A stretch of 60,466 bases of DNA, counting the filler. It is 6 parts of 6 records of this genome, joined end to end, with 100 filler letters (N's around TTAATTAATTAA, not from the genome) between each part and the next. Parts side by side here need not be neighbours in the genome. Positions count along the whole stretch, not along the records: positions 41,531 to 60,466 come from SRR31156797_11892; 5 more parts are not named here. One strand, given 5' to 3'. A program made the position numbers and the translations under genes. The notes under the pieces were generated by a model. It saw only the letters and a list, made by a program, of their open reading frames with translations. It did not search any database and was not told the origin of the DNA. This document shows, piece after piece, positions 32,743 through 59,945 of the stretch (the first letter of the stretch is position 1; each line of letters begins with the position of its first letter).

Positions 32743-32769
32743 CTCTTAAAGTTATCTAAATTATTATCT

Positions 32770-41730: not shown

Positions 41731-41733
41731 CGC

Positions 41734-42477
41734 GTGAAACAAATTTTAACCTTTTGCCTGGTATCTACCATTTATTTTACCTGCTGGGGTTTAACAGACG
41801 GTTGTTGCCAAAGCAGCTCTACGATCCGGGGAACTGTGAAAGCCATTAAACCAACACCAGTCTTGAGTCCTGAAATCACAATATTGAAACAGGCGGATGA
41901 TGGAAACATCATTGAAAAAAAATTTACTGCGGTTTTCTTACAGAACGACACCGGATGTGTTGACTGGAATGCCCCTGAAAACCGTTTAAAGGCGTTGGTG
42001 TTCAACCTTTTGCCGGGCAATGTGGTTGAAATAAGTTATGCGCGTCAAAATGGGAGGCAGGAAATTAAAACAATCAGGCTTTTGTCCCTTTCCTCAACAA
42101 CGCTTTTTCCGGGATACGAAAAAGTAAAACATGGGCAGTTGCTAACGGATCTTCAGATGCCGGAACCCAAAAAACCTGTGATTGTTTTACTCAAGGGGCA
42201 TGAAAAACTATCATCCCGCATGAAAATGAAAGACAAGCGCCAGTCAGTCATTAAGGAGATCAAGGTGCTTCAGAACAAAGTGCTTGGGGCAATTTCCAAA
42301 GAGGCGTTTACCCCGGGTCTGATTTTGACAAATGTTCCTGTGATTTCAGGAGATGCCACCCTTGAAGGCATTAGGGTTTTGGCTGGGAATCCGCTTGTGG
42401 AAACCATTGAATCTGATATGCCGATGGAGCTTCATGGTGATGGTGTCAAGTCCATGCAGATGGGAGGAGAAAAATGA
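41734..42477 (+). CDS. Exported protein with a C-terminal stand-alone subtilase propeptide (inhibitor I9-like) domain
   Basis: N-terminal hydrophobic signal. VIVLLKG..LQNKVL..NVPVISG..GIRVLAG.PLVETIESDMPMELH aligns with the prodomain of the next gene. RBS AAGGAGG, GTG start. Confidence 0.7.
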   Translation: MKQILTFCLVSTIYFTCWGLTDGCCQSSSTIRGTVKAIKPTPVLSPEITILKQADDGNIIEKKFTAVFLQNDTGCVDWNAPENRLKALVFNLLPGNVVEISYARQNGRQEIKTIRLLSLSSTTLFPGYEKVKHGQLLTDLQMPEPKKPVIVLLKGHEKLSSRMKMKDKRQSVIKEIKVLQNKVLGAISKEAFTPGLILTNVPVISGDATLEGIRVLAGNPLVETIESDMPMELHGDGVKSMQMGGEK

Positions 42478-43937
42478 TGAATTTGTATCGATTTACTATG
42501 TTCTGTTGCGCTGTAGTGCTGATGCTTTGCTGGCCTGCCTGGACAATCGCTTTCCAGGGAATTGAAAAAATAAAGGATCCGGAACTGCTGGAGCAGGCTG
42601 AAAAAACATTAGAACCTGTGCAGGTTATTGTTGTTCTAAAAGGCTGTGAAGAAGTCAAGGACATACATTTCGGCAAAGATGTTTTCACAAAATCGTCTGT
42701 CCAGTCAAAGGTTGCCCGTATCCAGGAAAAAGTGCTTAGCCGGATGCCTTTTGAAAATGGCCGGATTCGGTATCGAATGGAAAATTTGCCCATCATATCG
42801 GGCGAAGTTTCTTATTCAGGTCTGAAATCGTTGGCAGGACTTGAAGACGTTGTGATGATCGAAAAAGACCATCCCTTGGAATTACATACAGCACAAGGCC
42901 TTGAGTTAATTGAAACCGGCAGTTACCGGTATCCAGACAGTGGCAGGTCTGTTGCCATCGCGATTGTAGATACCGGTGTGGATTATTCCCATCCAGCATT
43001 GGGGGGCAGAAGGTTTCCAAATGCAAAAGTAATCGGAGGTTACGATTTCGGTGATAAAGATTCGGACCCTATGGATAACCTGGGACATGGCAGCAGTTGC
43101 GCAGGCATATCAGCAGGCTGGGCCAGAAAACGGGGCGATTACAAAGGCGGGGTTGCTCCAGCAGCAGGCATATATGCATTAAAAGCCAGCAACCGGGAAG
43201 GCCTAATTCCAAGAAGTGCTAGTTTGGCGTCTATAGATTGGTGTGTTTCTCATCAATATGATTCTTCTGATCAACCCATTATGATTATATCCATGAGCCT
43301 TGGTACTCAAAATTTTCAATCGCATAGCTATTGTGATAACAAATTCAACTCCGCGCAGGCTAGTTTTGATATGGCCGAAGCCAATGGGATTGCGGTATTT
43401 GTTTCCTCTGGAAATGAAGCTAATCCAAAAGGAATAAGTTTTTCTTCTTGTATGAAAAACACTATTGCTGTAGGTGCCGTTTATGACGGCAGTTCTGGCG
43501 AGGCTAAATTCAACAATTGTAGCGATAGCTCAACTGCTTCCGATCAGGTTACCTGCTATTCTAATTCTGCACCTATATTGGACATGCTGGCACCTTCACA
43601 TGATGCTTACACTCCCTCCTGGCCAAATGGAAAATATAACCGGGAATTTGGAGGCACCTCAGCTGCCTGTCCATATGCAGCCGGTGCAGCCGCCTTGATT
43701 CAAAGCTACCATAAAGAAAAAACCGGCCGTTTCCTAAGTGTTAAAGAACTCAAAGCACTTATGATTGAAACAGGAGATCCAATTAAGGACCAAAAATCAG
43801 GGATTACAACCCCCCGCGTAAATATCACCAAAGCCATACAATCACTAAATCTTGAGGGTGATCGGAGCGAGGGAGGAGAGGGGTCAAACAGAGCAATAGA
43901 TCAATTAAGGGATTTATTGCAAAATGCAAATCAATAA
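42474..43937 (+). CDS. Secreted S8 subtilisin-like serine peptidase
   Basis: Signal peptide, prodomain, triad IVDTG / HGSSCAG / GTSAACP, oxyanion SSGN. Confidence 0.93.
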   Translation: MMNLYRFTMFCCAVVLMLCWPAWTIAFQGIEKIKDPELLEQAEKTLEPVQVIVVLKGCEEVKDIHFGKDVFTKSSVQSKVARIQEKVLSRMPFENGRIRYRMENLPIISGEVSYSGLKSLAGLEDVVMIEKDHPLELHTAQGLELIETGSYRYPDSGRSVAIAIVDTGVDYSHPALGGRRFPNAKVIGGYDFGDKDSDPMDNLGHGSSCAGISAGWARKRGDYKGGVAPAAGIYALKASNREGLIPRSASLASIDWCVSHQYDSSDQPIMIISMSLGTQNFQSHSYCDNKFNSAQASFDMAEANGIAVFVSSGNEANPKGISFSSCMKNTIAVGAVYDGSSGEAKFNNCSDSSTASDQVTCYSNSAPILDMLAPSHDAYTPSWPNGKYNREFGGTSAACPYAAGAAALIQSYHKEKTGRFLSVKELKALMIETGDPIKDQKSGITTPRVNITKAIQSLNLEGDRSEGGEGSNRAIDQLRDLLQNANQ

Positions 43938-43951
43938 AATTTATTTTAAAA

Positions 43952-44072
43952 AATTGTACGGTTTTTTAATTTGTCCGTAAGGTATAGTTGAGCATGAAAA
44001 CAACTAAGTTAAGGTCGTCATCTTAAATTTTAAGAATATGCGGCACATTTTACTCTTATTAAACAAAGGAGA
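43952..44072 (+). promoter_or_regulatory. Putative promoter/leader, copy 2
   Basis: TTTGTCCGTA (43970-43979), TTACTCTTA (44050-44058) and AAACAAAGGAG, matching 41611-41730. Confidence 0.45.
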
Positions 44073-44078
44073 ACAATT

Positions 44079-45053
44079 ATGGAAAAATCGTTTCAAATTC
44101 TGTTTATGACAGCCATGGTCATGTTGAGTCTGACGGCATACACGGTCACCGCTTTTGCAGATGTAAAAGCTATCGGTATCCGCTCCGGCGGCGGCAGCAG
44201 CGGCGGCGGAAATGGTGACGGCAATCCGTTAAAAGTGGAATTTACCCCGGTCAAACAGGTCTTTAAAACCGGTGAGGCCATCCGTTTTAAAGTCAGGGGA
44301 TCTGAAACATTTTACCTGTATCTTTTCAGCGTGGATGAAAGAAATAATAAAGGGTATATGATTCTGCCCAACAAAAAACAGCAGTATATTAAATATAAAG
44401 CCGGAACAACTTATACCGTACCGGAAAAATATATTGAATTTTACAGTGATTCCCCAGGCCGGGAAAAAATTATCATGCTGGCCAGCACCAAACGAATGGA
44501 TGTGAAATTTGACAGGTATGCCAAGGTCGGCAATCTTCTCTCTGCCAATTTTGACACGGTTGTTCAGGAAACCAAGGCGCTTGGCATCCGCTCCCGCCAG
44601 GCTAAAGCCAAACATGTTACCAAAGAATTGTCCCTGATAATAACAGGAAATGGACAACACGCAGGTGTTGTGCCTCCCAGTCATCGTGGCAGTGATCCGG
44701 CAGCAGCACCGTTTGTTTCTACAAACAAATCTTCGTACCGGGTTGGAGATGCCATCCGTATCACCTTTGGTGCCGATAAATCCGGATATGTACATCTTTA
44801 TATCAACGAACCCGGTGGCCGCCAATCCTTTCTGACTACAAAAAAGGTTTCCGGCAGGGACTTTTACCAGGTGAACGCCACGGCTTCCAGGCCCGGCGGG
44901 GTCCATCAGATTATCGCCGTGTATGACAATAACGCCACCCCGGATAAACACCGGATCTATACGCTTGCAACCAAACAGATGTCCAAGGATATTCGCCTGG
45001 CCCCTGATACGCCGGATGCCTACGCCGTTTATGACTTCATTATTGAGGAGTAA
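44079..45053 (+). CDS. Secreted tandem DUF4384-domain protein
   Basis: Signal ending AFA; FKTGEAIRF..YLYLFSVD..ILPN..YTVP..PGREKI and YRVGDAIRITF..GYVHLY..PGGVHQI. Confidence 0.78.
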   Translation: MEKSFQILFMTAMVMLSLTAYTVTAFADVKAIGIRSGGGSSGGGNGDGNPLKVEFTPVKQVFKTGEAIRFKVRGSETFYLYLFSVDERNNKGYMILPNKKQQYIKYKAGTTYTVPEKYIEFYSDSPGREKIIMLASTKRMDVKFDRYAKVGNLLSANFDTVVQETKALGIRSRQAKAKHVTKELSLIITGNGQHAGVVPPSHRGSDPAAAPFVSTNKSSYRVGDAIRITFGADKSGYVHLYINEPGGRQSFLTTKKVSGRDFYQVNATASRPGGVHQIIAVYDNNATPDKHRIYTLATKQMSKDIRLAPDTPDAYAVYDFIIEE

Positions 45054-45060
45054 AATAATC

Positions 45061-45576
45061 ATGAGAGCTTCAATTCTGCTTACCGGCCTGCTCATCAGTG
45101 TGGCCCTGTTATCCGGCGGGTGCAAAAACACAGACTATGTTCATGTCGGACCTAACTGGAAAGCCCTTCACGACATGGAGCCTGAAAAAAATGCATTTTC
45201 AGTCACCGTGAAAGGCACCCGTGAAGCCCCACTGGGAAAAGCGCTTTCTTATACGGTTTATTCCGGCGAAACCGGAAAGCTTTGGGTCGTGCAGGTGGAT
45301 CCTGATGATAAGGTTTCCGTTATTGTCCCCAATGCTGAAATGCAGGACCATCAAATTCTAAAAAATGTTCCCCTGCATATTCCACCCCAAGGTGCCCACT
45401 GGGAAATGGCTGCCATGGAGCCTGTGGGAAAAAGTGTGCTCGGTTTTTTTGTGACAACAGGGGATGAAGATATCAGTGCTATCCTGTCCCAGGGACAAGG
45501 AACATCCAAGGCGATCCATGTAAGACCGGTCTCTGAATGGGGCATGGATAAAATGGTCGTGGATATCAAACCATAA
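45061..45576 (+). CDS. DUF4384-domain lipoprotein
   Basis: Lipobox LSGGC; GKLWVVQVDPDDKVSVIVPN..HIPP..EPVGKS; start at ATG 45061. Confidence 0.75.
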   Translation: MRASILLTGLLISVALLSGGCKNTDYVHVGPNWKALHDMEPEKNAFSVTVKGTREAPLGKALSYTVYSGETGKLWVVQVDPDDKVSVIVPNAEMQDHQILKNVPLHIPPQGAHWEMAAMEPVGKSVLGFFVTTGDEDISAILSQGQGTSKAIHVRPVSEWGMDKMVVDIKP

Positions 45577-45583
45577 ACCGCTA

Positions 45584-45605
45584 AAAGGCGCCAAAAGGCG
45601 CCTTT
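45584..45605 (+). terminator. Intra-cluster stem-loop (partial terminator or RNA stabiliser)
   Basis: AAAGGCGCC-AAAA-GGCGCCTTT between the DUF4384 genes and the first caspase gene. Confidence 0.6.
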
Positions 45606-45640
45606 ATTCATATTGCTTCAAAAAGGACAGGAGATAGGAA

Positions 45641-47026
45641 ATGAAAGGTCACTCTTATTGCACACAGCGGGGAATATTTTTTATTCTGGTTTGCTTATTG
45701 TTAAGTGCCTGGCCGGCCTTTGCAGAGAACCGGGCATTGATCATTGGGGTGGGAAAATATCAGATATCATCGGGCAATCTGCCGGGTATTGAAAAAGATG
45801 TTGAAATGGCCAAGAAGATCGCACAGGCAATTGGATTCAAATCCAGCCAGATCAAGGTGCTCAGGGATGAGCAGGCCACCCTTGACAATATCGGCAGTAC
45901 GATCAGCAGCTGGTTGATTCAAGGCACCACCAAAAACGACCGGGTTTTCTTTTATTTCAGTGGGCACGGTTCACATGTTCTTGACACCGACAGGGATGAA
46001 AAAGACAATGCCGATGAGGTCCTGCTGCCCCATGATACACAAATTAAAGGTAAAACCTTAAAAAATGTTTTTTTAGATGATGTGTTCGGTAAAATGCTGG
46101 CAAAAATTCCTGCCAGGGAAAGTTTTGTATTTATCGATGCCTGCCACAGCGGTACCAGTACCAAGTCTTTTGGCAGTTCCGATCAAAAAGCCAAATTCTT
46201 TATATACCCTGGAATGCCTCGCCTGGTCGGAAAAGCCAACTTTTCCACCCAGCCCAGGCGCCGGGCCATAACCCGGGAGCGGTTTGCCTCTTTGAGTGCT
46301 TGTCAGGATGATGAAACGGCCATTGCCACACGGGACGGCAGCCTGTTTACCCGGGGATTGTATGATGCCATCACTAAATCCAATGGGAAACCGGTTTCCC
46401 TCAAATTGTTGAAAAAAAGTACCACGGCTTATATTGCCGCCCATGCATCGCCTGACAAGGTCCACCACCCGGATTTGGCGGGCAGTAAAAAACTTCAAAG
46501 AAAAGATATTCATGTTACCAGTGCCGTATCATCACCCTCGGAATCCAGCCTTTGGGATCGGGTGATGTTGCTGACCGAAGGAGCGGACTATAAAGTACCG
46601 GTTCGTACCAGCCAGTCCAAGTTTAAGGAAGGGGACCTGCTGAAAATTTCACTGACCATGCCCCATGACGGATATGTCAATGTGGTGAATTTAAGCCCGA
46701 ATGACACGAAATCGACGATATTGTTTCCCAATGGATATCATAAGAAAAATTTCTTCAAGGCCGGCACCCGGATTACAATTCCGGGTAAAGATGACGACTT
46801 TAATTTGCCGGCATCTCCGCCTTTTGGAAAAACCCTGATCGCAGTGTTTGTGACCACACAGGAAATTAATTCATATAAAAAAGGGCTTGGGAATTCGGGG
46901 GATCTGATCAAACTCATGTCCAGTGAAACCGCCGGGGAATTTGATGCGGTCAGAGGTAGTTTTTCCGTTCAGGCAAAATCCGTAGGGCTGGGCGCAGGCA
47001 GGGTGATCGCTTTAGTTGAACCGTAA
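45641..47026 (+). CDS. Secreted caspase-like peptidase C14 + DUF4384
   Basis: Signal ending AFA; RALIIGVGKY, LPGIEKD, FSGHG (H109), DACHSG (C168), SLFTRGL; C-terminal DUF4384 (FKEGD..GYVNV..LFPN..PPFG). Confidence 0.9.
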   Translation: MKGHSYCTQRGIFFILVCLLLSAWPAFAENRALIIGVGKYQISSGNLPGIEKDVEMAKKIAQAIGFKSSQIKVLRDEQATLDNIGSTISSWLIQGTTKNDRVFFYFSGHGSHVLDTDRDEKDNADEVLLPHDTQIKGKTLKNVFLDDVFGKMLAKIPARESFVFIDACHSGTSTKSFGSSDQKAKFFIYPGMPRLVGKANFSTQPRRRAITRERFASLSACQDDETAIATRDGSLFTRGLYDAITKSNGKPVSLKLLKKSTTAYIAAHASPDKVHHPDLAGSKKLQRKDIHVTSAVSSPSESSLWDRVMLLTEGADYKVPVRTSQSKFKEGDLLKISLTMPHDGYVNVVNLSPNDTKSTILFPNGYHKKNFFKAGTRITIPGKDDDFNLPASPPFGKTLIAVFVTTQEINSYKKGLGNSGDLIKLMSSETAGEFDAVRGSFSVQAKSVGLGAGRVIALVEP

Positions 47027-47067
47027 TGTCCATGAACGATACCTCACCATCAAGGAGACAAAAAAAA

Positions 47068-48966
47068 ATGAAAACAATGATCCGACTGATTGGGCTTAGC
47101 CTGCTGGCACTCAGCATTACCCTCCCTTCTTTGGCAATGGCTGCCGATAAAAAAGCGATGCCAACCGGCATGTTTGAGCTGTATGCCATGAACGAAAAAG
47201 ACAACATCGGCAACTACATCACCGAAGACTTCATTCTTACGGCCTATGCCATGATGGTTAACCAAAGTATTACGGATATGGAACAGGCCGTGGTCATGCC
47301 GGCGTTTAAGACTCTGTTGACTGCCATGGTTCAGCATTTGAAAAATAACCCGCCCTCCAAATTGCCGGTGGATGTTGCAGCCCATAAAGCCAACCTTAAT
47401 TATCTGAGCGTGGTCAAAGCCCTGGCATTTGGTCACACAAAAATCAAGGACGCCCCGGACGGTGACACCGCCAATGGGGAACTTTCTGCCGTGATGGGTG
47501 CCAAAGGGATTGCCGTATCCCCATTGGTGCAGCAAAAGATTGACTACACCCAATTCAAGGTTCGGGGTAAATATACCCGTACTGCTGAACTGAAGAACTA
47601 TTTTCGGGCGATGCGGTACAGCAGCACTGTATTATTCCCGGTGCTTTCATCCAAAGCGACAGGTATTACGGAAAAGCAGGCGGATTTTCTGACTGCCCAG
47701 GCCCGTGCCCTGGCTGAGCTGATTCAAAATCAGCCGAAAATCAAACAGCAATATGACAGTATCAACGAAAAATTATCCTTTTTGTTCGGGCCGCCCGATG
47801 ATTTGACCGTTGGCGACTATATAAAGGTCTCTTCTGCCGTATCCCCTGAAACCAAGCTCCCGGCCCTGAGGAAAAAATTGGCTGAGTTTGCTGGAAAGCA
47901 CAGCAAACAGCCCCGGATTATTGCCGGTATCGTGAACCAGTCTGCTTTGAAAAAAGAAAAGCGCAGCGCATCGGAAGTTATGACCGGATTTCGGTTAATG
48001 CCCCTGCGGTTCACCCCGGACAGCGCGGCCTTACAGGAATTATGCTACAGCCGCCTGTCCGGCGATTACCAGGGTAAGGATAAAAAACAGCCTCCTTTTT
48101 CCATGGTCCTGGCTGGCGGCCGCCCGGTTAAAGGATTCCCCCTGACCCTTGAGCTGATGGCTCTGTCCGGGTCAAAGGCCGCTGAGACGATCCTGGCCGG
48201 TTCCGGCGACCAGGCATACAAGGGGTATGATGTGGCATTCAAAAAGGCGAAAGCCGGTCTTGACCAGGGCAACGGTCTGGCCGCAGATCACCTGGCACTG
48301 ATTGCCTACTGGCTGAAAAGAGGTCAGGATATCCAGGTAAACAATGATCCTGCCAGGCGCCTGAACACCAGTCTGGGGTTTTATACCTGGCACCGGTATA
48401 TCAATATCCTGTATGCCAAACAATCTTACAGTGCAGTGGCTAAAAGTCTTTTGATATCACAGTCCCGCAGCACTGCATGGATTGAACCGGCACCTGAACT
48501 CTATCTTCTTTTGAAAAATCAGGTGGGCAAGCTGAGCAAGCACTTTGCAGATCCCCGGTATACCCGCAGGATGAGTACGTTTGCCGGACTGCTTGAACGC
48601 TGTCATGACATTGCCCGCAATATTGTTCTTGGAAAATCCCTGTCTGCGGCTGATACAGGCTTTTTAAATACCTTGGATCAGGCGTTTAAAAAATTATTGC
48701 CTGGTGAAGACCATCCCATTGTTGTGGATATCCACACGGATGCCAATTCCGGCAAGGTGCTGGAACAGGCCCTGGGATATCCTCAAATCGTTGAGCACGA
48801 TACCGGGAAGGGCCGAACACGGGGCGCACTATTCACCCATTATGAATTTAAACAGGACATGGATAAACGGTTGACGGACAGGGAATGGCAGCTGATTCTC
48901 ACTGCTGACCCGAAATTGGCTAACTTTCAGATGGCACCGGGTCCCGATTCGGGTACAAAACCATAG
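47068..48966 (+). CDS. Secreted DUF3160-family protein
   Basis: Signal ending AMA; YITEDFIL, DYTQFKVRGKYT..YFRAM, FRLMPLRFTPDS, ILYAKQ, VVDIHTD, YEF..RLTDREW. ATG 47068 after AAGGAG. Confidence 0.8.
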   Translation: MKTMIRLIGLSLLALSITLPSLAMAADKKAMPTGMFELYAMNEKDNIGNYITEDFILTAYAMMVNQSITDMEQAVVMPAFKTLLTAMVQHLKNNPPSKLPVDVAAHKANLNYLSVVKALAFGHTKIKDAPDGDTANGELSAVMGAKGIAVSPLVQQKIDYTQFKVRGKYTRTAELKNYFRAMRYSSTVLFPVLSSKATGITEKQADFLTAQARALAELIQNQPKIKQQYDSINEKLSFLFGPPDDLTVGDYIKVSSAVSPETKLPALRKKLAEFAGKHSKQPRIIAGIVNQSALKKEKRSASEVMTGFRLMPLRFTPDSAALQELCYSRLSGDYQGKDKKQPPFSMVLAGGRPVKGFPLTLELMALSGSKAAETILAGSGDQAYKGYDVAFKKAKAGLDQGNGLAADHLALIAYWLKRGQDIQVNNDPARRLNTSLGFYTWHRYINILYAKQSYSAVAKSLLISQSRSTAWIEPAPELYLLLKNQVGKLSKHFADPRYTRRMSTFAGLLERCHDIARNIVLGKSLSAADTGFLNTLDQAFKKLLPGEDHPIVVDIHTDANSGKVLEQALGYPQIVEHDTGKGRTRGALFTHYEFKQDMDKRLTDREWQLILTADPKLANFQMAPGPDSGTKP

Positions 48967-48979
48967 GGGGAAAAATAAA

Positions 48980-49861: not shown

Positions 49862-49890
49862 TACTACGGATAGGAGGCCTGATCATAAAT

Positions 49891-51609: not shown

Positions 51610-51619
51610 GGAAGCTACA

Positions 51620-54490
51620 ATGAAAAATAAATTCTCAGTACAATGTTGTGTTCTGTTTTTGATGTTCTGGGTGATGGGAGGGGCCGCTGCCGCCCCAAGC
51701 CGCCCGCCATCAACCGAACCCATTCTCCGGCTTGGAACAAAAATGCATTTTTCTACGATAAGGCGGATCAGTAGTGATGCTTCAGGCCGGTATATTCTCA
51801 CCTGCAGCGAGGATAAAACGGCAAGGCTCTGGGACGGGGAAACCGGTGATCTTGTCAGAATTTTAAGAGTTCCGTTAGAAAAAGGAAAGGAGGGCAAACT
51901 GCGTGCCTGTGCCCTTTCTCCTGACGGAAACATTGCGGCTGTGGGAGGGTTTACAGGTTACAAGTATTCGGGAAAAATCGTCATCTATCTTTTTAGTACA
52001 CTCACAGGTGAAATGATCCAAAGGCTGACGGGTATGGAAGGTGTCGTTTGTGACATCGAATTTTATTCCAATCATTTATTTGCTGCAGCCCTTGGCGGAA
52101 AAACCGGCATCCGGGTATTTAAAAAAACCGGAACCCGTTTTGTTCAGCATCACAAAGATACAGACTATGGCGGACCAACTTTAAATTTGGCTTTTGGTAC
52201 AGATGGCCGGCTGGCATCTGTTGCCTTTGACGGTTATATCCGCCTTTATGATGCTGAATTCAACCTTATAAAAAAGAAGAAGGCAACGGGCGGGAAAAAG
52301 CCCTATTCACTTACTTTTTCTCCGGATAATACCAAACTGGCAGTTGGATATGGTGATACCGCTGCCCTGGAAGTACTGGACACGGGCAACCTTGACGTCC
52401 TCTACCGGCCCGATAATAAGGGTGCCGATACCCCGGGCCTGCAGTTGAACAAGTTAAGCTTCGGGACGGACGGGTGCCTCTACGGAGGCGGGCTCTATGA
52501 TCAATCCATTGAAGGCAGGCAGTGGTTTTTAATTCGCAAATGGGCTGATTATGGCCGGGGAAAGTTTTTGGATTTTAAAGCCGCCGGCAATACGGTTATG
52601 GATATTAAGGCATTTGGAAACGGGCTTGTTATGATGGCCGGCAGCCGGCCGGATATGGCTTTGTTTACAGCGTCCGGAGACAGGGTGTTTTATAAAACCG
52701 GCGAAGTGATGGATTTTGGGCATAAAGACCGGTTTGAATTTTTTACAGTGAGCCGGGATGGCGGCCGGATTACATTTAAACCCACGGGGGCTGATCCGCT
52801 TACCTTCAGCATTGCCGACAGGGCACTGAAACCATTTTCCAAAAAATTTGACTCTTCCCGGGATAGCCGCGCGGGGCTTAATATTACAGACTGGAAAAAT
52901 ACGGATTGCCCAAAACTCAACGGCTGTCCATTGGATTTTCTGGATCGATATGAGACCTGTCGAAGTATAGATATCGGAGCGGATGGCACTCTTCTGGTGG
53001 GTGCCGCCTGGTCAATTTATGCGCTGGACAAAACAGGAAATCAAAAATGGAGAGCACAGGTCCCCGGCGAAGCCTGGGCCGTTAAGATTGCCCCGGATAA
53101 TAAAGTCGCTGTGGCAGTTCATGACGGGGGGGAAATCCGTTGGTACAGGATGAAAGACGGTGCACTGCTTTTGTCCCTGTTTGTCCATCCGGACAGAAAA
53201 AGATGGATTCTGTCTACCCCCCAAGGGTATTATGATTCTTCCCCCGGAGCAGATTCCCTTATGGGCTGGCATATTAACAAGGGTCCGGAACAGGCTGCAT
53301 CTTTTTATCCCATGTCCCGTTTTCGGTCATCATATTACCGGCCGGATGTTTTGGCTAAAGTGATTGAGTACGGTGACGGTGGAAAAGCGCTGGAGGCAGC
53401 GGACAAGGGCAAGAAAAAAAAGCCGTTATCCATTGTGAAAATGGTACCGCCGGAAGTGGTCATTGTTTCCCCTGAAAATAATGCTGTGGTTTCTTCGGAT
53501 ACAATCCGTGTCAAATACCGGGTCAACACGCCTTCAGGGGAAGCAGTCACTGGAATTAAAGTGATGGTGGACGGACGGCCTCTGGACCGTCAGCGGGGAA
53601 TTAAGCGGGTAAAAAAAGGAGATGTTGTTGAAGTTAATGTTCCGGTGCCGCCCCGGGATAGTACGCTGTCTATTATCGCCGAAAACCGGTATGCTGCAAG
53701 TGAACCGACAAAAGTCAGGTTGAAGTGGAGCGGGCCTGACAAGTTCATTCTCAAACCCAAACTCTATGTTCTGGCCATGGGCAGTTCCTTGTACGACGAT
53801 GAGGACCTTCAACTGGATTTTCCGGCAAAAGACGCCCAGGATTTTGCTGCTGTGTTAAGACAGCAAAAAGGGGGCATTTATAGGGATGTGGAAGTGAATT
53901 TGCTTGATAATCCCTCAAGGGATGATATTTTAGATGGTTTGGATTGGATTGAAAGGCAGACCACAGATCTTGATGTGGCAGCAGTGTTTCTGGCCGGCCA
54001 TGGGGTGAATGACAGAAATGGAAAATACTACTACCTGCCCATTGACACGGATCGTGATAGAATCAAACGGACCGGGATATCTTATTCAGCCATCAAAGAC
54101 ACGATCACCGGACTGGCCGGCAAGGTGCTTTTTTTTATCGACACCTGCCATTCCGGTAATGTGATGGGAGCGCGGCGTGGTGATACAGGTGATCTGAATC
54201 AGGTTGCAAATGACCTGTCCTCTGCTGAAAACGGGGTTGTGGTCTTTACCTCTTCCTCAGGGACCCAGTATTCACTGGAAAATCATTCTTGGGGCAACGG
54301 GGCATTTACCAAAGCTGTGGTCGAAGGATTGTCCGGGAAGGCCGATTACCATCGGGACAATAAAATATCCATCAATGAACTGAAATTGTTTGTGGCTGAG
54401 CGGGTTAAAGAACTGACCCGGGGGCAGCAGACCCCCACAACCTGTCAGCCTGAAACAATTACCGATTTTCCCATTGTGTTGATACAATAA
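51620..54490 (+). CDS. Secreted WD40 beta-propeller + Ig-like + caspase-like peptidase C14
   Basis: Signal peptide; WD40 repeats (TCSEDKTARLWD, SVAFDGYIRLYD, GEIRWY); TPQGYYDSSPG; PPEVVIVSP Ig-like domain; LAGHG (H794), DTCHSG (C843), GAFTKA, GQQTP. Confidence 0.9.
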   Translation: MKNKFSVQCCVLFLMFWVMGGAAAAPSRPPSTEPILRLGTKMHFSTIRRISSDASGRYILTCSEDKTARLWDGETGDLVRILRVPLEKGKEGKLRACALSPDGNIAAVGGFTGYKYSGKIVIYLFSTLTGEMIQRLTGMEGVVCDIEFYSNHLFAAALGGKTGIRVFKKTGTRFVQHHKDTDYGGPTLNLAFGTDGRLASVAFDGYIRLYDAEFNLIKKKKATGGKKPYSLTFSPDNTKLAVGYGDTAALEVLDTGNLDVLYRPDNKGADTPGLQLNKLSFGTDGCLYGGGLYDQSIEGRQWFLIRKWADYGRGKFLDFKAAGNTVMDIKAFGNGLVMMAGSRPDMALFTASGDRVFYKTGEVMDFGHKDRFEFFTVSRDGGRITFKPTGADPLTFSIADRALKPFSKKFDSSRDSRAGLNITDWKNTDCPKLNGCPLDFLDRYETCRSIDIGADGTLLVGAAWSIYALDKTGNQKWRAQVPGEAWAVKIAPDNKVAVAVHDGGEIRWYRMKDGALLLSLFVHPDRKRWILSTPQGYYDSSPGADSLMGWHINKGPEQAASFYPMSRFRSSYYRPDVLAKVIEYGDGGKALEAADKGKKKKPLSIVKMVPPEVVIVSPENNAVVSSDTIRVKYRVNTPSGEAVTGIKVMVDGRPLDRQRGIKRVKKGDVVEVNVPVPPRDSTLSIIAENRYAASEPTKVRLKWSGPDKFILKPKLYVLAMGSSLYDDEDLQLDFPAKDAQDFAAVLRQQKGGIYRDVEVNLLDNPSRDDILDGLDWIERQTTDLDVAAVFLAGHGVNDRNGKYYYLPIDTDRDRIKRTGISYSAIKDTITGLAGKVLFFIDTCHSGNVMGARRGDTGDLNQVANDLSSAENGVVVFTSSSGTQYSLENHSWGNGAFTKAVVEGLSGKADYHRDNKISINELKLFVAERVKELTRGQQTPTTCQPETITDFPIVLIQ

Positions 54491-54499
54491 GGAGTTCTA

Positions 54500-55414
54500 A
54501 TGAAAAAAGTAATTTTTTTTAACGTTTTTTTGTACGGTTTTATTTCATTGTTGATTCTGTCTGGCTGCATGATGCCGCAGGGAACAATTGAGCCTGTGCA
54601 GGGTGATCAGTGTGCGCAAAATCTGTATAAATTACAATCGTATGACAAATCAAATGCAGTGACCTCTTCTGCGATGTCCTGGACAAAATGTATAGCAGAA
54701 TGCGAGCTTAAAGCTTTTCTGACAGGTGGGGAAGAAGACTGCAAAGCCAAGTGTAACAGTCAGGTCGATACAAAAAAAATAGTTAACAACTTTATTTCAA
54801 CTTCGGAAGAAGAACAAATGCGACTGAGGCAGATCAACCTTGAAATTGACCGCCTTCAGCAGTGCCGGAATCAGGAATCCAGACTGATACTTGCGGGATT
54901 AAAAAGCAAAAATTCCGTTAGAAGAAAAAATGCCCGGGCCGACTACAAAGTTTTCGTGGAAAAAGTCCAAAATGACAACCGTCTATTAGACAAACTTTTA
55001 GCTGCATCCGGAGAGCGCATCTCTGAACATGAAAAGACAATGACAGAACTCAATAAAATGAATGATGATTCGGGCATTAATGTACGTGCAGGATACAATA
55101 TACGCAGTGCACCATCTACAAAAACCGGTCAAATTATCGGAAAAACAGGCTCAAGGGCAACAATCAGGCAGGTCCAAGGCAGATGGGTCTGTATCGACTA
55201 TCTTTCGCATGAAAAGGCATATGTCCATATCAAAGCGTTTCCCTCTCTTTCTCCTGGCAGCCAAACAGCGCCCGGCAAGAAAAATAATGCAGCAGCCCAT
55301 GAAGCTCATGTCGCGACCCAAAGACAACATGCTGAATCTGTTGAAAAAAAATCCGATTATGCCAGCGGTATGGATCTTCGTTTGTCTGAACTGGATGAAG
55401 CGAGCATTTCCTAA
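54500..55414 (+). CDS. Lipoprotein with Cys-rich segment, coiled coil and SH3b-like domain
   Basis: Lipobox ILSGC; CIAEC..CKAKC; NIRSAPSTKTGQIIG..GRWVCI. Confidence 0.7.
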   Translation: MKKVIFFNVFLYGFISLLILSGCMMPQGTIEPVQGDQCAQNLYKLQSYDKSNAVTSSAMSWTKCIAECELKAFLTGGEEDCKAKCNSQVDTKKIVNNFISTSEEEQMRLRQINLEIDRLQQCRNQESRLILAGLKSKNSVRRKNARADYKVFVEKVQNDNRLLDKLLAASGERISEHEKTMTELNKMNDDSGINVRAGYNIRSAPSTKTGQIIGKTGSRATIRQVQGRWVCIDYLSHEKAYVHIKAFPSLSPGSQTAPGKKNNAAAHEAHVATQRQHAESVEKKSDYASGMDLRLSELDEASIS

Positions 55415-55437
55415 ACATATATAGGAAGGAAGAAAAG

Positions 55438-56055
55438 ATGAAAAAAAAGTCTATTTGTTTGGGTTGGCTGTGGATCTGCGTATTTTTTTTAGCCGGTCAT
55501 GGTGTTTGGGCAAGTGAAAAAATGGTCAAGGCCAAAATTGGAATTGAGATTTTTACGGGTCAAGATATTCAACGTGCAAAATCCAGGGATACGTTAAAAC
55601 CGGGGGATAAAATTCGCATTTACGTCCATACCCGGGAAAGTGCCAATGTCTATGTGGTGTCCACTGACAAGAAAAAAGCCATTCTGCTCAATATGACCAA
55701 TCCAAAAATCGGTGAGCCCACGTTTGTATGTCTGCCGTCTGCCGATGCCTACTACAAAGTGGACGGTATCTCGCCTGTTGAACGGTTGATCATTTTGTGC
55801 AGCCAGGAAAAAATACCTGAAATCTCTAAAATGACCGACTCGGGAATACCATGGAGCCAATGGGTTGACATAGAAGCCAGGCTTTCCAATCAAAGCACTG
55901 TTTCTTTAACCCAGTCTTTAAAACCGACCATTGAAATCGCTGGAAATACCAAGGGGTTGGATGGTGCTGTTGCTAAAGACGATTTTGTAGATACGCTTCC
56001 CACCTATTCGGGCAAAGGACTGCTGACAAAAATATATGAGTTCAAAATTCAATAG
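55438..56055 (+). CDS. Secreted DUF4384-like protein
   Basis: Signal ending VWA; LKPGDKIRIYV..ANVYVV..LPS..YKVD..ERLIIL. Confidence 0.68.
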   Translation: MKKKSICLGWLWICVFFLAGHGVWASEKMVKAKIGIEIFTGQDIQRAKSRDTLKPGDKIRIYVHTRESANVYVVSTDKKKAILLNMTNPKIGEPTFVCLPSADAYYKVDGISPVERLIILCSQEKIPEISKMTDSGIPWSQWVDIEARLSNQSTVSLTQSLKPTIEIAGNTKGLDGAVAKDDFVDTLPTYSGKGLLTKIYEFKIQ

Positions 56056-58198
56056 AAAAAAAAGGTTTGGCCTGGTTTTTTGTATTGCCCTGCTTTTTAT
56101 TTTTAGTTTGTTTTTGTTTTGGAGATGGAATGGAAAGTTCTGGACCCGGTATGATGCCATAGCCCTTGACTATGTTTACCGGTTGGCCGTTAGCAAAGGC
56201 AAAGGTCCGGCGTCTTCATTTATGCCTCGGGTCACGTACCTGATTATCGACGATGATACATACCGGTATTTTGGTAAAAATGCCTTGTCCCGCATTGATT
56301 TAGCCCGGATCAACAATGCACTGGTACGTCTCAGTCCCCTGGCGGTTGCGTATGACATTATTTTTGCCATGCAAGGTCCCGTGGATTCGGACCTGCAGTT
56401 TGCCAAATCCATTGCCGACCTTGGGTGCGTTTTTTTGCCAGTGGGGTGTGCGCTTTCCAACACGCCGGTGTCACCTGGAACGCTTCCGGAACTCAGTCAG
56501 TTGGCTGCACCTGAAATATACGGACAGGGCAAGCCTTTTCATGCTACCCGGATTCTTACGCAGCAGGGCAGATTCAGGCTGGCTGCAAAAGGGATTGGAG
56601 ATATCAGTGTCCAGGCAGATTCTGATGGGGTATATCGGCATATACCCTTGCTGATCAAGGTGGGCGATGATTATTTGCCGACCTTAAGTTTGTCTATGTT
56701 TTTGGATCACGCCGGCATTTCCTGGGATCAGATCCAGGTCCGTTGGGGAAAGCATATTTCCTTGCCCGGTCCCAAGGAAACAATCCGTATTCCCATTGAC
56801 CACAGAGGCAGGGTGTTCATCCCTTTTGTGGCTCCTATGGGAAAGGATTTCCCCGTTGTTGGGGTCCATACTTTTCTTGACGCCTCACAAAATGACGACC
56901 TCAGGGGGAATCTTGAAGAATTATTTGAAGGTAATTTTATCATAATTGCGGATGCGGCAACCGGTGCAGCAGACATAGGGACGACTCCCCTGGAAAGGGC
57001 CGTTCCACTGGTTAATATCCATGGTGCCCTGCTCAATGGGCTGTTGACCAATTCATTTTATCACAAGTGGCCTTCCCCAAAAGTCATTACCTGTCTTTCT
57101 TTGATGTTGATCCTGTTTACGGTCAGCACGGCGCTTGGAGCCCGATTAGTATTATACGGTTCTGGAATTCTTATCTTTGTGACCCTTCCCTTTTTAACCT
57201 GGTATGAATTTATTCATTTCAGACTGTTCCCTGTTACCACGGTGATGCTGTCAGGCGCATTGCTGTTTGCCTTATTGGTTGTTGCGTTGGAATACATCTC
57301 CTCAATCGACAGAACTGCCATCCGGGATATATTTTCCAGATATGTTCCCAAATCAGTGGTCAAAGAGTTGCTGGCAAATCAGAAAAAGCTTGAGTTGGGT
57401 GGAGAAGAAACAACAGCCACGGTTTTATTTTCCGATATTGTTGGTTTTACCACTATTGCCGAATACCTGAAGCCAGGAGAACTGGTTTCTTTACTCAACC
57501 ACTATCTTACCGAGATGGCTGATATTATACTAGAACAAGAAGGGATCATTGATAAGTTTCAAGGCGATGCCATCATGGCGGAATTTGGTATACCGCTTCC
57601 GTCCCAAGACCATGCGGACAGAGCCGTAACAGCAGCTATCGCCATGCAGGATCGTCTTGTCGAACTTAGAAAAGAGTGGAAAAAAGAGGGGAAGCCTCAG
57701 CTTTATTGCCGTATCGGGATTAACACCGGAAAAATGGTTGTGGGGAACATGGGGTCCAGGCAGTGTCAAGACTACACGGTGATGGGAGATGCTGTAAATC
57801 TGGCGTCAAGGCTGGAGGGAGCAAATAAATTATATGGCACCGATATCATGATTTCCGAATTTACGCTCAATGCATTAAAACAAAGGCGGTATACTTATAG
57901 ATTGCTGGATGTTATTAAAGTTAAGGGAAAAGCCGAAGCAGTAACCGTCTATGAGGTGTATGGATTCAGTGGGGATTTTATAGGGGAAAACGAAGAAAAA
58001 TATTACAGTTGCTATGAACAGGCTTTTGATGCGTATCTCAGCCGAGATTTTAAAACGTCAGAATTAAATTTTCAGAACGCTCTAACTTATCGCCCCAATG
58101 ATCCTGCCGCCAGTGAAATGATTCTCAGAGTTAAAAGCCTATTTTTAAAAAAGCTTCCACCTATTTGGGACGGGTCTGTATCTCTGAAATCTAAATAA
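56036..58198 (+). CDS. CHASE2-domain class III adenylate cyclase with C-terminal TPR-like tail
   Basis: TM; CHASE2 (IIDD.T, YDIIF, DSDGVYR, TPL...IHG); three TMs; VLFSDIVGFT, DKFQGDA, DYTVMGDAVNLASRLE (Lys/Thr pattern indicates ATP), VKGK. Confidence 0.92.
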   Translation: MSSKFNRKKRFGLVFCIALLFIFSLFLFWRWNGKFWTRYDAIALDYVYRLAVSKGKGPASSFMPRVTYLIIDDDTYRYFGKNALSRIDLARINNALVRLSPLAVAYDIIFAMQGPVDSDLQFAKSIADLGCVFLPVGCALSNTPVSPGTLPELSQLAAPEIYGQGKPFHATRILTQQGRFRLAAKGIGDISVQADSDGVYRHIPLLIKVGDDYLPTLSLSMFLDHAGISWDQIQVRWGKHISLPGPKETIRIPIDHRGRVFIPFVAPMGKDFPVVGVHTFLDASQNDDLRGNLEELFEGNFIIIADAATGAADIGTTPLERAVPLVNIHGALLNGLLTNSFYHKWPSPKVITCLSLMLILFTVSTALGARLVLYGSGILIFVTLPFLTWYEFIHFRLFPVTTVMLSGALLFALLVVALEYISSIDRTAIRDIFSRYVPKSVVKELLANQKKLELGGEETTATVLFSDIVGFTTIAEYLKPGELVSLLNHYLTEMADIILEQEGIIDKFQGDAIMAEFGIPLPSQDHADRAVTAAIAMQDRLVELRKEWKKEGKPQLYCRIGINTGKMVVGNMGSRQCQDYTVMGDAVNLASRLEGANKLYGTDIMISEFTLNALKQRRYTYRLLDVIKVKGKAEAVTVYEVYGFSGDFIGENEEKYYSCYEQAFDAYLSRDFKTSELNFQNALTYRPNDPAASEMILRVKSLFLKKLPPIWDGSVSLKSK

Positions 58199-58225
58199 CG
58201 GCTATGGCCGTTCGTTATTTTTTTG
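58193..58225 (+). terminator. Possible terminator or stem-loop between cyclase and HD-GYP genes
   Basis: AACGGC-TATG-GCCGTT (alternatively AAATAACG/CGTTATTT) followed by a T run. Confidence 0.45.
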
Positions 58226-58250
58226 TTTTTTAAAATTTATAAGGTGTTTC

Positions 58251-59945
58251 ATGGATAAAAAAATTTCACATAAATTTTTTGGTAATAAACGGTTGGACAG
58301 GCTTGTCAACACCATTGCGACAGAGGTCAACGACTATGCCCATGAACAGATAAAACATATTAAGAAATTGTCTGAAATCGGGATGGCACTCTCCGTCGAA
58401 AAGGACATGAAAAAACTGTTTAAAATGATTCTTACCGAGGCTCGTATGTTTTGCAGGGCTGAGGCGGGGACTTTGTATCTTCTTGATAAAAAGAAACAAA
58501 GTCTTCGATTCGAAATTTTTCAAAACGAGAAAATAAAAAGTAGTACGTCAGTGCCTTTAGAGCCACCCATTCAACTGCCGGATGTACCATTATATATCAA
58601 CGATCAACCCAATCATTCCAATGTGTCCTCCCATGCGGTTTTGAATAAAACAGTCGTTAACTTGCCGGATATTTATAATATGAAAGATACGGGCAAAACG
58701 CGGGAGTTGGATTTTAAAGGGACAATGAAATATGACCGTGCCACAGGATTTCGGACCCGTTCAATGCTTGTGATCCCCATGAAAAATCACGAGAATCAGA
58801 TTATCGGCGTTCTCCAGTTGATTAATGCCAGGGACGATGAAACCGATAAGATTATACCATTTTCAGAAGGAATGCTTGAAATCGTTTCTTCACTTGCCTC
58901 CCAGGCTGCTGTGGCTTTGACAAATGCACAATTGATCAGCGAACTCAAGGCTCTTTTTTATGCCGTTATCAAAAGTATTGCAACGGCCATTGATAAGAAG
59001 TCCGCATATACGGGAGGGCATATCAGGCGGGTGGTTGAATTGACTATGATGATGGCCGAAGATATCAATGCTTCCCAAACAGGTGCTTTTAAGGATGTTT
59101 GTTTAACCGAGGCACAGATGGAGGAGCTTCATATCGCGGCCTGGATGCATGATGTCGGCAAAATCACTATTCCAGAGTTTGTCGTGGATAAATCCGCAAA
59201 GCTGGAGACGGTTTTCGATCGTATTGACCTGATTAAAACCCGGTTTGAATTAATAAAGGAAAAACTTAAAAACAGTTGTGCCGATAAAATATTAAACCGT
59301 GCTGCATTGGGAAAGCAAGCCCCCGATGAATTTGACTGGCTTGAAAGGGAACGGGATGAAAAAATAATGCAGATTCAGGGTGATTTTGAATTTATCGAAT
59401 CCTGTAACAATACTGGGGATTATATGTCCGATGAAAAAGTTGAGCGGATAAAGAAGATAGGAAAAAAGAGATATGTCGTCAATGGGAAAGAATACCCGTT
59501 TCTTACTGAGAATGAAATCCGGAACCTGTGCATCAGAAGGGGTACTTTGACTGACGATGAGAGAGCGCAGATTGAAAATCATGCAAAAATGACCTTTGAT
59601 ATTATCAGTCAGTTGCCTTTTCCCAAACATCTTTCCCACGTACCTGAATATGCGGCATCTCACCATGAAAAACTTGACGGCAGCGGTTATCCGTGGGGAC
59701 TCGACAGTGACAGTATTCCCATTCAATCGCGCATCATAGCTATTGCCGATATCTTTGAGGCCCTGACAGCCAGGGACCGGCCCTATAAAACGCCTATGGG
59801 GCTGTCTCAAAGTATGAAAATTTTAGAGTTCATGAAACAAGACAACCATATTGATTCAGCCATACTGGATCTTTTTATCAAAAATAGGCGATTTTTAGAA
59901 TACGCTGAAAAAGAGATGAATCCCGATCAAATTGATATGGAGTGA
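58251..59945 (+). CDS. GAF + HD-GYP cyclic dinucleotide phosphodiesterase
   Basis: GAF (AGTLYL, TRSMLVIPM..IIGVLQLIN); YTGGH, HDVGKI, HHEKLDGSGYP, ADIFEALTA.DRPYK. Confidence 0.92.
   Translation: MDKKISHKFFGNKRLDRLVNTIATEVNDYAHEQIKHIKKLSEIGMALSVEKDMKKLFKMILTEARMFCRAEAGTLYLLDKKKQSLRFEIFQNEKIKSSTSVPLEPPIQLPDVPLYINDQPNHSNVSSHAVLNKTVVNLPDIYNMKDTGKTRELDFKGTMKYDRATGFRTRSMLVIPMKNHENQIIGVLQLINARDDETDKIIPFSEGMLEIVSSLASQAAVALTNAQLISELKALFYAVIKSIATAIDKKSAYTGGHIRRVVELTMMMAEDINASQTGAFKDVCLTEAQMEELHIAAWMHDVGKITIPEFVVDKSAKLETVFDRIDLIKTRFELIKEKLKNSCADKILNRAALGKQAPDEFDWLERERDEKIMQIQGDFEFIESCNNTGDYMSDEKVERIKKIGKKRYVVNGKEYPFLTENEIRNLCIRRGTLTDDERAQIENHAKMTFDIISQLPFPKHLSHVPEYAASHHEKLDGSGYPWGLDSDSIPIQSRIIAIADIFEALTARDRPYKTPMGLSQSMKILEFMKQDNHIDSAILDLFIKNRRFLEYAEKEMNPDQIDME

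Follow-up and report, generated by a model that had tools for sequence, protein, structure and literature searches.

The locus and its contig

We analyzed a stretch of 60,466 nucleotides (the window) in which 13 co-directional open reading frames (ORFs; g1–g13), all on the + strand between positions 41734 and 59945, encode three caspase-like (C14) peptidases, a subtilase, DUF4384 and DUF3160 proteins and, at the 3' end, a CHASE2 adenylate cyclase and a GAF-HD-GYP phosphodiesterase. A preliminary description of this DNA had presented the 13 genes as one undescribed envelope system, in which exported proteases might sense envelope contact or damage, or build a surface structure, and report through cyclic AMP (cAMP) and cyclic di-GMP (c-di-GMP); its observations are confirmed here with corrections, and its interpretation is partly supported. 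We find that this Desulfobacter-type contig brings together several nested modules and does not carry one fixed system. Module A (g1–g2) comprises an exported subtilase and a free propeptide-like protein; module B (g3–g9) is a conserved exported core that includes a peptidoglycan-anchoring TPR-OmpA protein; and module C (g11–g12 with g13) consists of a DUF4384-like protein, the CHASE2 adenylate cyclase and the GAF-HD-GYP protein.

The window is a pseudomolecule of separate contigs joined by linkers of the form N...TTAATTAATTAA...N, of which there are five (at 12586, 17807, 25323, 32889 and 41475) where none would be expected by chance. The last linker (41432..41530, unstranded) precedes the contig that carries the cluster, which starts at ~41531, ~200 bp 5' of g1; because the linkers join separate contigs, genes before 41431 are not true neighbors of the cluster. 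The cluster's contig is Desulfobacter, and both of its ends are assembly breaks. As a 19,011-base contig built by a second assembler from the probable source run spans 41531–60466 unbroken, with zero differences and even depth, two assemblies, probably of the same reads, agree on the contiguity of the 13 genes. Short metagenome contigs from two runs partly cover both halves of the cluster at 90–99% likeness and are too short to establish linkage.

The genes are as tightly spaced as originally reported: intergenic gaps range from -20 to +141 bp, the largest (141 bp) lying between g2 and g3 and most others measuring 7–64 bp, with overlaps of 4 bp (g1/g2), 1 bp (g5/g6) and 20 bp (g11/g12). Spacing is 9 bp between g9 and g10 and 23 bp between g10 and g11, and a consensus scan, our sole criterion for hairpins, placed no terminator-like site between these genes. 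The same scan identified three hairpins on the + strand: one between g4 and g5 (45584..45605; nine pairs, six of them G-C, with a weak T tail), a possible attenuator; one at the stop codon of g12, with a T-rich tail (58197..58212), a possible attenuator before g13; and a terminator-like hairpin 3' of g13 (59961..59978).

Exported proteases and accompanying proteins encoded by g1 to g10

Domains were assigned by the curated cut-offs of Pfam, and export was called by a hydropathy script; no NCBIfam model scored above its cut-off for any of the 10 cluster proteins tested. The first 11 proteins had been said to carry signal peptides or lipoboxes. For ten of them (g2–g11) this agrees with an N-terminal hydrophobic segment, while the segment of g1 is weaker.

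The product of g1 (247 residues; 41734..42477) has no Pfam or NCBIfam family. Toward the C-terminus it reproduces the subtilase propeptide as a free copy, residues 122–234 matching residues 24–138 of g2 with 37% identity (E 1e-14), in keeping with the earlier reading. g2 (487 residues; 42474..43937) encodes an exported S8 subtilase with a propeptide of its own (Peptidase_S8, 128 bits), in whose sequence we read the motifs DTG, HGS and GTSAA, presumably those of the subtilase Asp/His/Ser triad.

Among the genes that follow, g3 (324 residues; 44079..45053) encodes a secreted protein with two DUF4384 domains (75.9 bits, two stretches), and g4 (171 residues; 45061..45576, its start reread from the 44923 given previously) a probable lipoprotein (LLSGGC) with one (38.7 bits). 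Two secreted proteins combine C14 and DUF4384 domains: g5 (461 residues; 45641..47026; Peptidase_C14 87.8 bits, DUF4384 69.1 bits) and g8 (572 residues; 49891..51609; 64.5 and 33.3 bits), the latter with a long linker. The third secreted caspase, g9 (956 residues; 51620..54490), has a C-terminal C14 domain (71.7 bits) behind a WD40 beta-propeller region and an Ig-like stretch, both of which had been overlooked. The six DUF4384 domains formerly counted in five genes are therefore borne out for g3, g4, g5 and g8, the remaining one, in g11, scoring below the cut-off.

All three C14 scores exceed the cut-off of 21.4 bits, and the motifs G-H-G and D-x-C-x-S are invariant among seven aligned C14 domains (g5, g8, g9 and four relatives), so that the His-Cys dyads are indeed intact; H794 and C843 of g9 are invariant in seven relatives, and the alignment of g5 to the yeast metacaspase 4f6o spans both catalytic motifs. 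The Asp at position Cys-2 is kept in all three domains, and we take it to be part of the acidic S1 pocket seen in metacaspase structures. Cleavage after Arg or Lys is predicted for these domains. Orthocaspases cut C-terminal to positively charged residues (PMC6426788; this and the other publications cited here are represented by extracts).

g6 (646 residues; 47026..48966) encodes a secreted DUF3160 (PF11369) protein whose match, well above the cut-off at 286 bits, is full-length (profile positions 22–622 of 632). No PDB relative was found for it by sequence; its predicted model (mean predicted local distance difference test, pLDDT, 78.7) is mainly helical with a C-terminal beta domain. The exported TPR protein g7 (293 residues; 48980..49861) has an OmpA-like peptidoglycan-binding C-terminal domain (OmpA, 45.5 bits) and matches TPR_1 and TPR_8, other TPR models and every NCBIfam model falling below their cut-offs; the assignments of DUF3160 to g6 and TPR-OmpA to g7 thus hold. 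g10 (304 residues; 54500..55414) is a lipoprotein (ILSGC, lipobox LSGC) with a coiled-coil region. Its designation as an SH3b protein is withdrawn, since the weakly SH3b-like C-terminus scores 17.8 bits with SH3_3 (PF08239) against a cut-off of 27; in D. curvatus, the gene 3' of a paralogous WD40-C14 gene encodes an unambiguous SH3_3 protein (46 bits).

The CHASE2 cyclase arm, g11 to g13

The secreted protein g11 (205 residues; 55438..56055), the proposed partner of the cyclase, carries the loop motif I-A-G-N-T-K-G at residues 167–173. We call it DUF4384-like and not a DUF4384 (PF14326) protein because its Pfam score, 17.4 bits, lies below the cut-off of 27, while profile comparison (hhalign 79%, E 1.6e-5) and the Protein Atlas neighbors of its homolog P0010, which carry DUF4384, point to that family. 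Together these results suggest that the beta-sandwich of g11 is distantly DUF4384-like.

The CHASE2 cyclase and GAF-HD-GYP assignments of the two last genes were both reproduced. g12 (720 residues; 56036..58198) encodes an inner-membrane class III adenylate cyclase (CHASE2 101.5 bits, Guanylate_cyc 96.1 bits) in which CHASE2 is preceded by one N-terminal membrane segment and followed by three more (residues 11–29, 350–368, 366–384 and 400–418 by hydropathy), ahead of the cyclase domain. Among 34 relatives, D467, D511, N588 and R592 are invariant and K507 and D585 nearly so; by analogy with class III cyclases, these are presumably the metal-binding Asp pair, the transition-state Asn and Arg, and the Lys/Asp pair for ATP. 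g13 (564 residues; 58251..59945) encodes a GAF and HD-GYP phosphodiesterase (GAF 49.5, HD_5 133, HD 49.7 bits) that has no membrane segment by hydropathy and is cytoplasmic, with the motifs MHD and HHEKLDGSGYP read in its sequence. Its PDB relatives are 4mcw, 5z7c and 4r8z, together with the GAF domains of PDE5, PDE2 and a cyanobacterial cyclase that bind cyclic nucleoside monophosphates (cNMP). The nearest solved relatives of the HD-GYP domain hydrolyze c-di-GMP or 3'3'-cGAMP. The GAF domain is predicted to be of the cNMP-binding kind, and its ligand and the HD-GYP substrate are likewise predictions.

Caspases encoded together with a nucleotide cyclase could also belong to an anti-phage or other conflict system. 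PADLOC returns caspase, subtilase and Pycsar cyclase (PycC) matches within the cluster, with none for g6, g10 and g13, and g9 has a C14 domain similar to the EACC1-associated caspase type of NCBIfam (93.9 bits, below the cut-off of 140). We nevertheless consider a defense role most improbable: the PADLOC matches are at the level of generic domains and did not extend to system-specific models; the three caspases and the subtilase have export signals, in contrast to the cytoplasmic caspases of defense; g12 combines adenylate-type residues with a CHASE2 sensor outside the cytoplasm; and the cluster encodes no NTPase, nuclease or other effector.

The exported core occurs without a CHASE2 gene

In D. 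latus, g1–g8 are present in the same order with 67–90% identity (g1 67%, g2 75%) and are followed by unrelated genes; no g9 relative was found in this genome with g9 as the query. The D. curvatus locus retains g3–g9 in order (70–90% identity), followed by efflux-pump-like genes, and is without g1/g2 and g11–g13; its g10 ortholog (52%) lies on the opposite strand. The g3 orthologs of the two genomes are 82–84% identical to g3. Module A is thus an add-on common only to D. latus.

To these we added genomes of the order (a sample of 151, with DUF3160 in 11 and CHASE2 in 122), five of which supplied eight DUF3160 loci. Five of the eight have C14 (C14-DUF4384) and OmpA-type neighbors, one of the five being decayed, while three represent a longer DUF3160 subfamily that stands alone. 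Another Desulfobacterales locus (L107) encodes in succession C14-DUF4384, DUF3160, TPR-OmpA, C14-DUF4384, a DUF4384 protein, a lipoprotein and WD40-C14, the gene order of g5 to g9; looser versions were seen in L106, L108 and L109. In L106, L107 and L108 the contig runs out no more than 300 bp from the WD40-C14 gene or the equivalent point. A looser core is also encoded by a Gallionella metagenome-assembled genome (MAG; L003), with C14-DUF4384, DUF4384, DUF3160, two WD40-C14 proteins, a two-domain DUF4384 protein and C14. Because D. latus, D. curvatus, the DUF3160 loci and the Gallionella MAG keep parts of the core without CHASE2, we conclude that the core is g3–g9 and that it is present elsewhere without any CHASE2 gene.

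In the decayed locus (L111; G048:C53, 334–13127), C14, DUF4384 and DUF3160 are found in short ORFs adjoining an intact TPR-OmpA gene.

A protease, a g11-like protein and a CHASE2 receptor form a recurrent unit

Loci encoding g11-like proteins were collected from genomes, metagenomes, the window and one further locus (L060). After leaving out one of each of four near-identical pairs (L122, L136, L151 and L152), 33 loci with at least 250 bp of downstream sequence were counted. In 26 of the 33, a CHASE2 ORF lies directly 3' of the g11-like gene, usually overlapping it by 13–43 nt. Sixteen of the CHASE2-paired loci have at least 1500 bp of upstream sequence, and in ten of these (the window, L060, L100, L102, L104, L123, L130, L132, L145 and L146) a C14 or CHAT gene is found on the same strand within 6 kb; three with less upstream sequence (L128, L129 and L138) start inside a truncated protease ORF at the contig edge. 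The type of protease beside the pair varies (WD40-C14, plain C14 or TPR-CHAT), while the g11/CHASE2 pair is constant; Pfam confirmed CHAT, TPS, ShlB, C14 and papain-DUF4384 in L100, L102, L104 and L105.

D. latus has a paralogous pair on a separate contig (39% identity to g11, 48% to g12), behind genes for ShlB, a TPS exoprotein and a TPR-CHAT protein. Its g13 ortholog (75%) lies ~4 kb upstream of this block, adjoining another CHASE2 cyclase gene. Seven full-length g13 relatives were identified in other genomes, and in three of the seven, D. latus included, a CHASE2 cyclase gene lies within 8 kb, which bears out the proposed tie between the GAF-HD-GYP protein and CHASE2 cyclases.

On the strength of the pairing counts, the protease neighbors and the neighborhoods of g13 relatives, we define a recurrent unit composed of a caspase-fold protease of variable family, a g11-like protein and a CHASE2 receptor, often with GAF-HD-GYP nearby. 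The link between an exported protease and a CHASE2 cyclase that was drawn from this one locus therefore extends to others. In the window the unit is represented by g9, (g10), g11, g12 and g13, of which g9 is shared with the core module.

The layout of some of these loci may be described further. The D. latus block (L104, equivalent to L016 and L114; ~350–14700) reads GAF-HD-GYP, ShlB, TPS exoprotein, TPR-CHAT, g11-like, CHASE2 cyclase and chemoreceptor, with a second CHASE2 cyclase and a cyclase fragment just beyond it. A GC-rich g11 subclade (L131, L134, L137, L140 and L141) has no downstream CHASE2 gene. In four of its members (L131, L137, L140 and L141) the g11-like gene is followed by a 130-residue ORF and then a pyruvate phosphate dikinase-like gene; in L134 just 255 bp of downstream sequence are available. 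A co-directional cluster of the Gallionella MAG (L014/L015) encodes an autotransporter-like protein, a hydrolase-like protein, C14, WD40-C14, a DUF7490 lipoprotein, MlaD, TPR, PG_binding-DUF4384, OmpA, DUF192 and a CHASE2 cyclase; here it is DUF192, not a g11-like protein, that precedes the cyclase.

WD40-caspases related to g9

At least 478 relatives of g9 are spread over many phyla. Of 80 WD40-C14 loci kept for analysis, 43 contain a full-length relative (at least 850 residues). Beyond its ortholog, the nearest relative of g9 is the WD40-C14 protein of the DUF3160 cluster L107 (44%). Given this relationship, and the presence of CHASE2 within 10 kb in only four of the 43 loci (L025, L036, L056 and L060), we assign g9 first to the core module; most WD40-caspases are not tied to CHASE2. 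These counts were made with our own CHASE2 profile models, which are less sensitive than Pfam, and a topology filter for missed CHASE2 proteins failed to recover the known L025 protein.

Among 73 unlabeled co-directional neighbors of WD40-C14 genes, the commonest Pfam families are glycine-zipper (7) and DUF7490 (5). In the set L020–L099, a lipoprotein of ~230 residues with glycine-zipper and DUF7490 matches is encoded 3' of many WD40-caspase genes; in the window this position is occupied by g10, which matches neither family. Three loci of Bacteroidota type (L057, L065 and L066) have a divergent S8 subtilase gene adjoining that for WD40-C14, which echoes the pairing of subtilase and caspase in the window.

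A conserved motif in a predicted disordered loop of g11

The g11 family is large, with 886 representative clusters when E is at most 0.001 and 132 when E is at most 1e-30. The AlphaFold model of g11 (mean pLDDT 78.9) consists of a confident beta-sandwich (strands, residues 29–122), a helix, a loop (159–180) with pLDDT below 50 that is predicted to be disordered, and a confident C-terminal hairpin (189–204) that packs back onto the domain. Conservation across the family peaks within the loop, at the motif A-G-N-V-R/K-G. As a strict regular expression matched just 49 of 129 sequences, the motif was evaluated by column counts (n=130): P164 is conserved in 101 sequences, A168 in 108 and G169 in 121, and position 172 is basic in 127 (122 Arg, 5 Lys), Lys being the residue in g11 of the window. 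A complex prediction for g11 (27–205) with the periplasmic part of g12 CHASE2 (32–348), made with alignments unused, scored 0.22 against a mark of 0.34, a value that weighs neither for nor against contact between the two.

A proposed mechanism and its alternatives

We tentatively propose the following mechanism, to which, taken as a whole, we give slightly less than an even chance. An exported caspase-fold protease, most likely g9, would dock on the DUF4384-like domain of g11 and cleave the exposed loop C-terminal to the basic residue of the conserved A-G-N-x-R/K-G. Cleaved g11 would present itself differently to the CHASE2 domain in the periplasm, and cAMP synthesis by g12 would change; the cNMP-type GAF domain of g13 would then read cAMP and tune an HD-GYP domain acting on c-di-GMP or another cyclic nucleotide. 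Module B would constitute a proteolytic machinery, tethered to peptidoglycan via the OmpA-like domain of g7, together with DUF4384 substrates or adaptors and DUF3160 as a partner, and may be able to operate independently of module C, as it would in D. latus and D. curvatus. A more specific version, which we regard as possible though rather doubtful, holds that g11 is a pro-ligand, that an exported caspase cleaves it behind the invariant basic residue of the conserved loop, and that the processed form is itself the direct activating or inhibiting ligand of CHASE2; the DUF3160/C14-DUF4384/TPR-OmpA core would in that event be a peptidoglycan-tethered protease cascade feeding g11.

CHASE2 is among the commonest extracytoplasmic sensor domains, as its presence in 122 of the 151 genomes of the order illustrates, and lacks a defined switch. 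The locus offers a testable lead in this respect: a conserved small partner, a candidate cut site and a caspase-fold protease nearby. If the pro-ligand version is true, CHASE2 receptors would gain their first defined switching mechanism, and a caspase-type protease would for the first time be seen to signal outside the bacterial cytoplasm. The analysis also gives DUF4384, DUF3160 and exported bacterial caspases a setting, in the envelope and tethered to peptidoglycan, and tells the conserved parts of the cluster apart from the accessory ones.

Several observations weigh against this mechanism. Seven of the 33 g11-like genes have no CHASE2 gene downstream; besides the GC-rich subclade, which accounts for five, these are L142, where genes for WD40-C14, C14 and the g11-like protein are followed by a metallophosphoesterase-like gene, and L148, with only 386 bp of downstream sequence. 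Six of the 16 informative g11/CHASE2 loci (L101, L103, L124, L133, L147 and L153) have no protease in view. The low frequency of CHASE2 near WD40-C14 genes counts in the same direction, as does its absence from the 25 listed Pfam families with at least two members among the 73 unlabeled neighbors, and from all eight DUF3160 loci (by our own profile models), the five caspase-bearing ones included. In the window itself, g10 sits between g9 and g11, and the assembly breaks off at the 5' edge of the cluster; with only ~200 bp of contig preceding g1, the cluster may be truncated there. Cleavage of g11 is purely a prediction, and CHAT proteases need not cut after basic residues. Finally, since the two closest genomes carry module B without module C at the locus, the adjacency of the two modules in the window could be recent and functionless.

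These points bring up the alternative that the protease cluster g1–g10 and the cAMP arm g11–g13 are independent neighbors, recombined side by side, the proteases acting on envelope or peptidoglycan-linked proteins and the cyclase sensing something unrelated. That D. latus has g1–g8 alone, with its g11/g12-like pair and g13 ortholog on another contig, that D. curvatus has g3–g10 alone, and that CHASE2 is common in the order and yet found at none of the DUF3160 loci are all in keeping with independence. Against this stand the proteases of differing families beside g11/CHASE2 in ten of 16 loci, an association unlikely to arise by chance; the 9 bp and 23 bp spacings from g9 to g11, with no terminator-like site between; and the Gallionella cluster, which runs on one strand from C14 and WD40-C14 through to a CHASE2 cyclase. 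We consider independence unlikely. It follows from the same comparisons (D. latus with g1–g8 only, D. curvatus without g11–g13, CHASE2 at none of the five caspase-bearing DUF3160 loci and at four of 43 WD40-C14 loci) that the 13 genes cannot be upheld as one system. Homologs had been expected to stay clustered; sub-modules do so, the whole 13-gene cluster does not. In this strain specifically, a conserved protease core and a sensor arm have been brought together.

A further alternative accepts the tie between g11 and CHASE2 and dispenses with cleavage, or reverses the direction of the link: g11 would be a stable CHASE2 co-receptor, like FecR-type proteins, with the loop as a binding surface, and the proteases would be outputs or clients that are controlled by cAMP or whose products are monitored. 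Published CHASE2 clusters do contain a periplasmic accessory protein and, in the extracts available, no protease (PMC5192318, PMC9239204); the six loci without a protease, and the C-terminal hairpin that in the model packs back on the domain, would also suit a stable protein. On the other side, a strong motif within a predicted disordered loop, basic at position 172 in nearly all sequences, fits a site of Arg/Lys cleavage or docking by orthocaspases, and DUF4384 is present on a known CHAT substrate. A co-receptor of this kind seems to us about as improbable as independence.

Regulated periplasmic proteolysis of adhesins is known from LapG/LapD, and by analogy the caspases and the subtilase might mature or release DUF4384/DUF3160 proteins of a peptidoglycan-anchored layer or adhesin, with the nucleotide arm only modulating. 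The OmpA-like anchor of g7 and the several DUF4384-only proteins would suit such surface or matrix processing, as would the presence of TPS exoprotein and ShlB genes next to paralogs of the g11/CHASE2 pair in D. latus and L100 and the PG_binding-DUF4384 and OmpA proteins of the Gallionella cluster. The contig, however, carries no gene for a giant adhesin-like protein or TPS, a point of little weight because the contig is cut at both ends. We think this explanation quite unlikely, and retain the cleavage of g11 by an exported caspase as our working proposal.

Relation to known systems

Two kinds of system already known resemble parts of the locus: CHASE2 receptor clusters with a periplasmic accessory protein, and multi-metacaspase operons. 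The closest of the former is a four-gene cluster of Campylobacterota that encodes a CHASE2 adenylate cyclase, a cAMP phosphodiesterase, a FecR-domain protein and a TPR protein (PMC9239204, mBio 2022). That cluster and the window have in common a CHASE2 class III cyclase encoded alongside a small exported accessory protein, may also correspond in their phosphodiesterase and TPR proteins, and, as far as the extract goes, are both known from sequence alone. The accessory protein of the window, however, is the divergent DUF4384-like g11 and not FecR, for which Pfam gave no match in any of the 13 window proteins; the window adds exported caspases, DUF3160 and a subtilase; and here GAF-HD-GYP (g13) follows the cyclase, with TPR-OmpA (g7) 6 kb upstream.

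The signals of CHASE2 are described as unknown (PMC5192318) or, in one case, as being of protein nature (PMC13001267). In that case, Sinorhizobium meliloti, the CHASE2 cyclases CyaD1, CyaD2 and CyaK raise cAMP in response to a plant ribosomal protein signal via the outer-membrane protein NsrA (PMC13001267). As proposed for the window, a signal of protein nature there reaches CHASE2 cyclases through an envelope partner; that partner is an outer-membrane beta-barrel, and the extract names neither a protease nor a DUF4384 protein. In the Burkholderia BiofilmReg operon, a gene for a LysM-FecR periplasmic protein adjoins that of a CHASE2 histidine kinase (PMC5192318). A small exported protein encoded beside a CHASE2 receptor is common to this operon and the window, whereas the kinase output, the partner family and, in the portion available, the lack of proteases differ.

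A precedent for DUF4384 as the substrate handle of a caspase-fold protease comes from the type III-E CRISPR Craspase, in which the TPR-CHAT protease Csx29 cuts Csx30, since one group of Csx30 C-terminal domains belongs to DUF4384 (bioRxiv 10.1101/2022.08.17.504292). As in the scheme proposed for g9 and g11, a caspase-fold protease acts on a DUF4384-bearing substrate, and a cut in a linker frees a signaling fragment. Craspase, by contrast, is cytoplasmic, RNA-guided and defensive, and is described without CHASE2 or a cyclase; g11 is likened to Csx30 by domain description.

Multi-metacaspase operons are reported from Deltaproteobacteria, with up to three metacaspase genes in Desulfococcus oleovorans Hxd3 (PMC3501461). 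They share with the window the presence of several metacaspase genes per operon within Desulfobacterales, and N-terminal helices that are likely signal peptides (PMC3501461); the likeness is one of description, as the extracts of that source give counts and neither composition nor function. Caspase and CHASE2 domains are also associated in fused proteins with a cytoplasmic caspase (PMC3501461, PMC8195603, PMC7475262, PMC5756287), among them cyanobacterial caspase-CHASE2 fusions and EACC2-caspase-CHASE2 proteins (PMC3501461, PMC8195603). In these fusions the caspase is cytoplasmic and CHASE2 is its input, whereas in the window the caspases are exported and CHASE2 is on the cyclase.

In the literature searched, which takes in few subscription journals, neither the combination of exported caspases, a DUF4384-like partner and a CHASE2 receptor nor the DUF3160 core was found described; DUF3160 was merely listed as a secreted enzyme. 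The wiring of protease, partner and CHASE2 cyclase is recurrent and, within the reach of this search, unpublished.

Other features of the window

Inside an ORF 3' of g13, positions 60294–60335 are common to contigs with depths of 90–137, compared with 18.7 for the contig of the cluster, and this repeat probably ended the contig. Elsewhere in the window, two contigs (17819–32888) have a G+C content of 32–39%, versus 44–50% for the remainder. One of these low-G+C contigs contains a gene (25425–26858) whose product bears a CHU_C type IX secretion signal, which suggests a Bacteroidota-like origin for that contig; the record may mix organisms. Near the start of the window, positions 272–2428 encode a 718-residue fusion of DinB_2, FGE-sulfatase and methyltransferase domains, an architecture that we take to be that of the ovothiol synthase OvoA.

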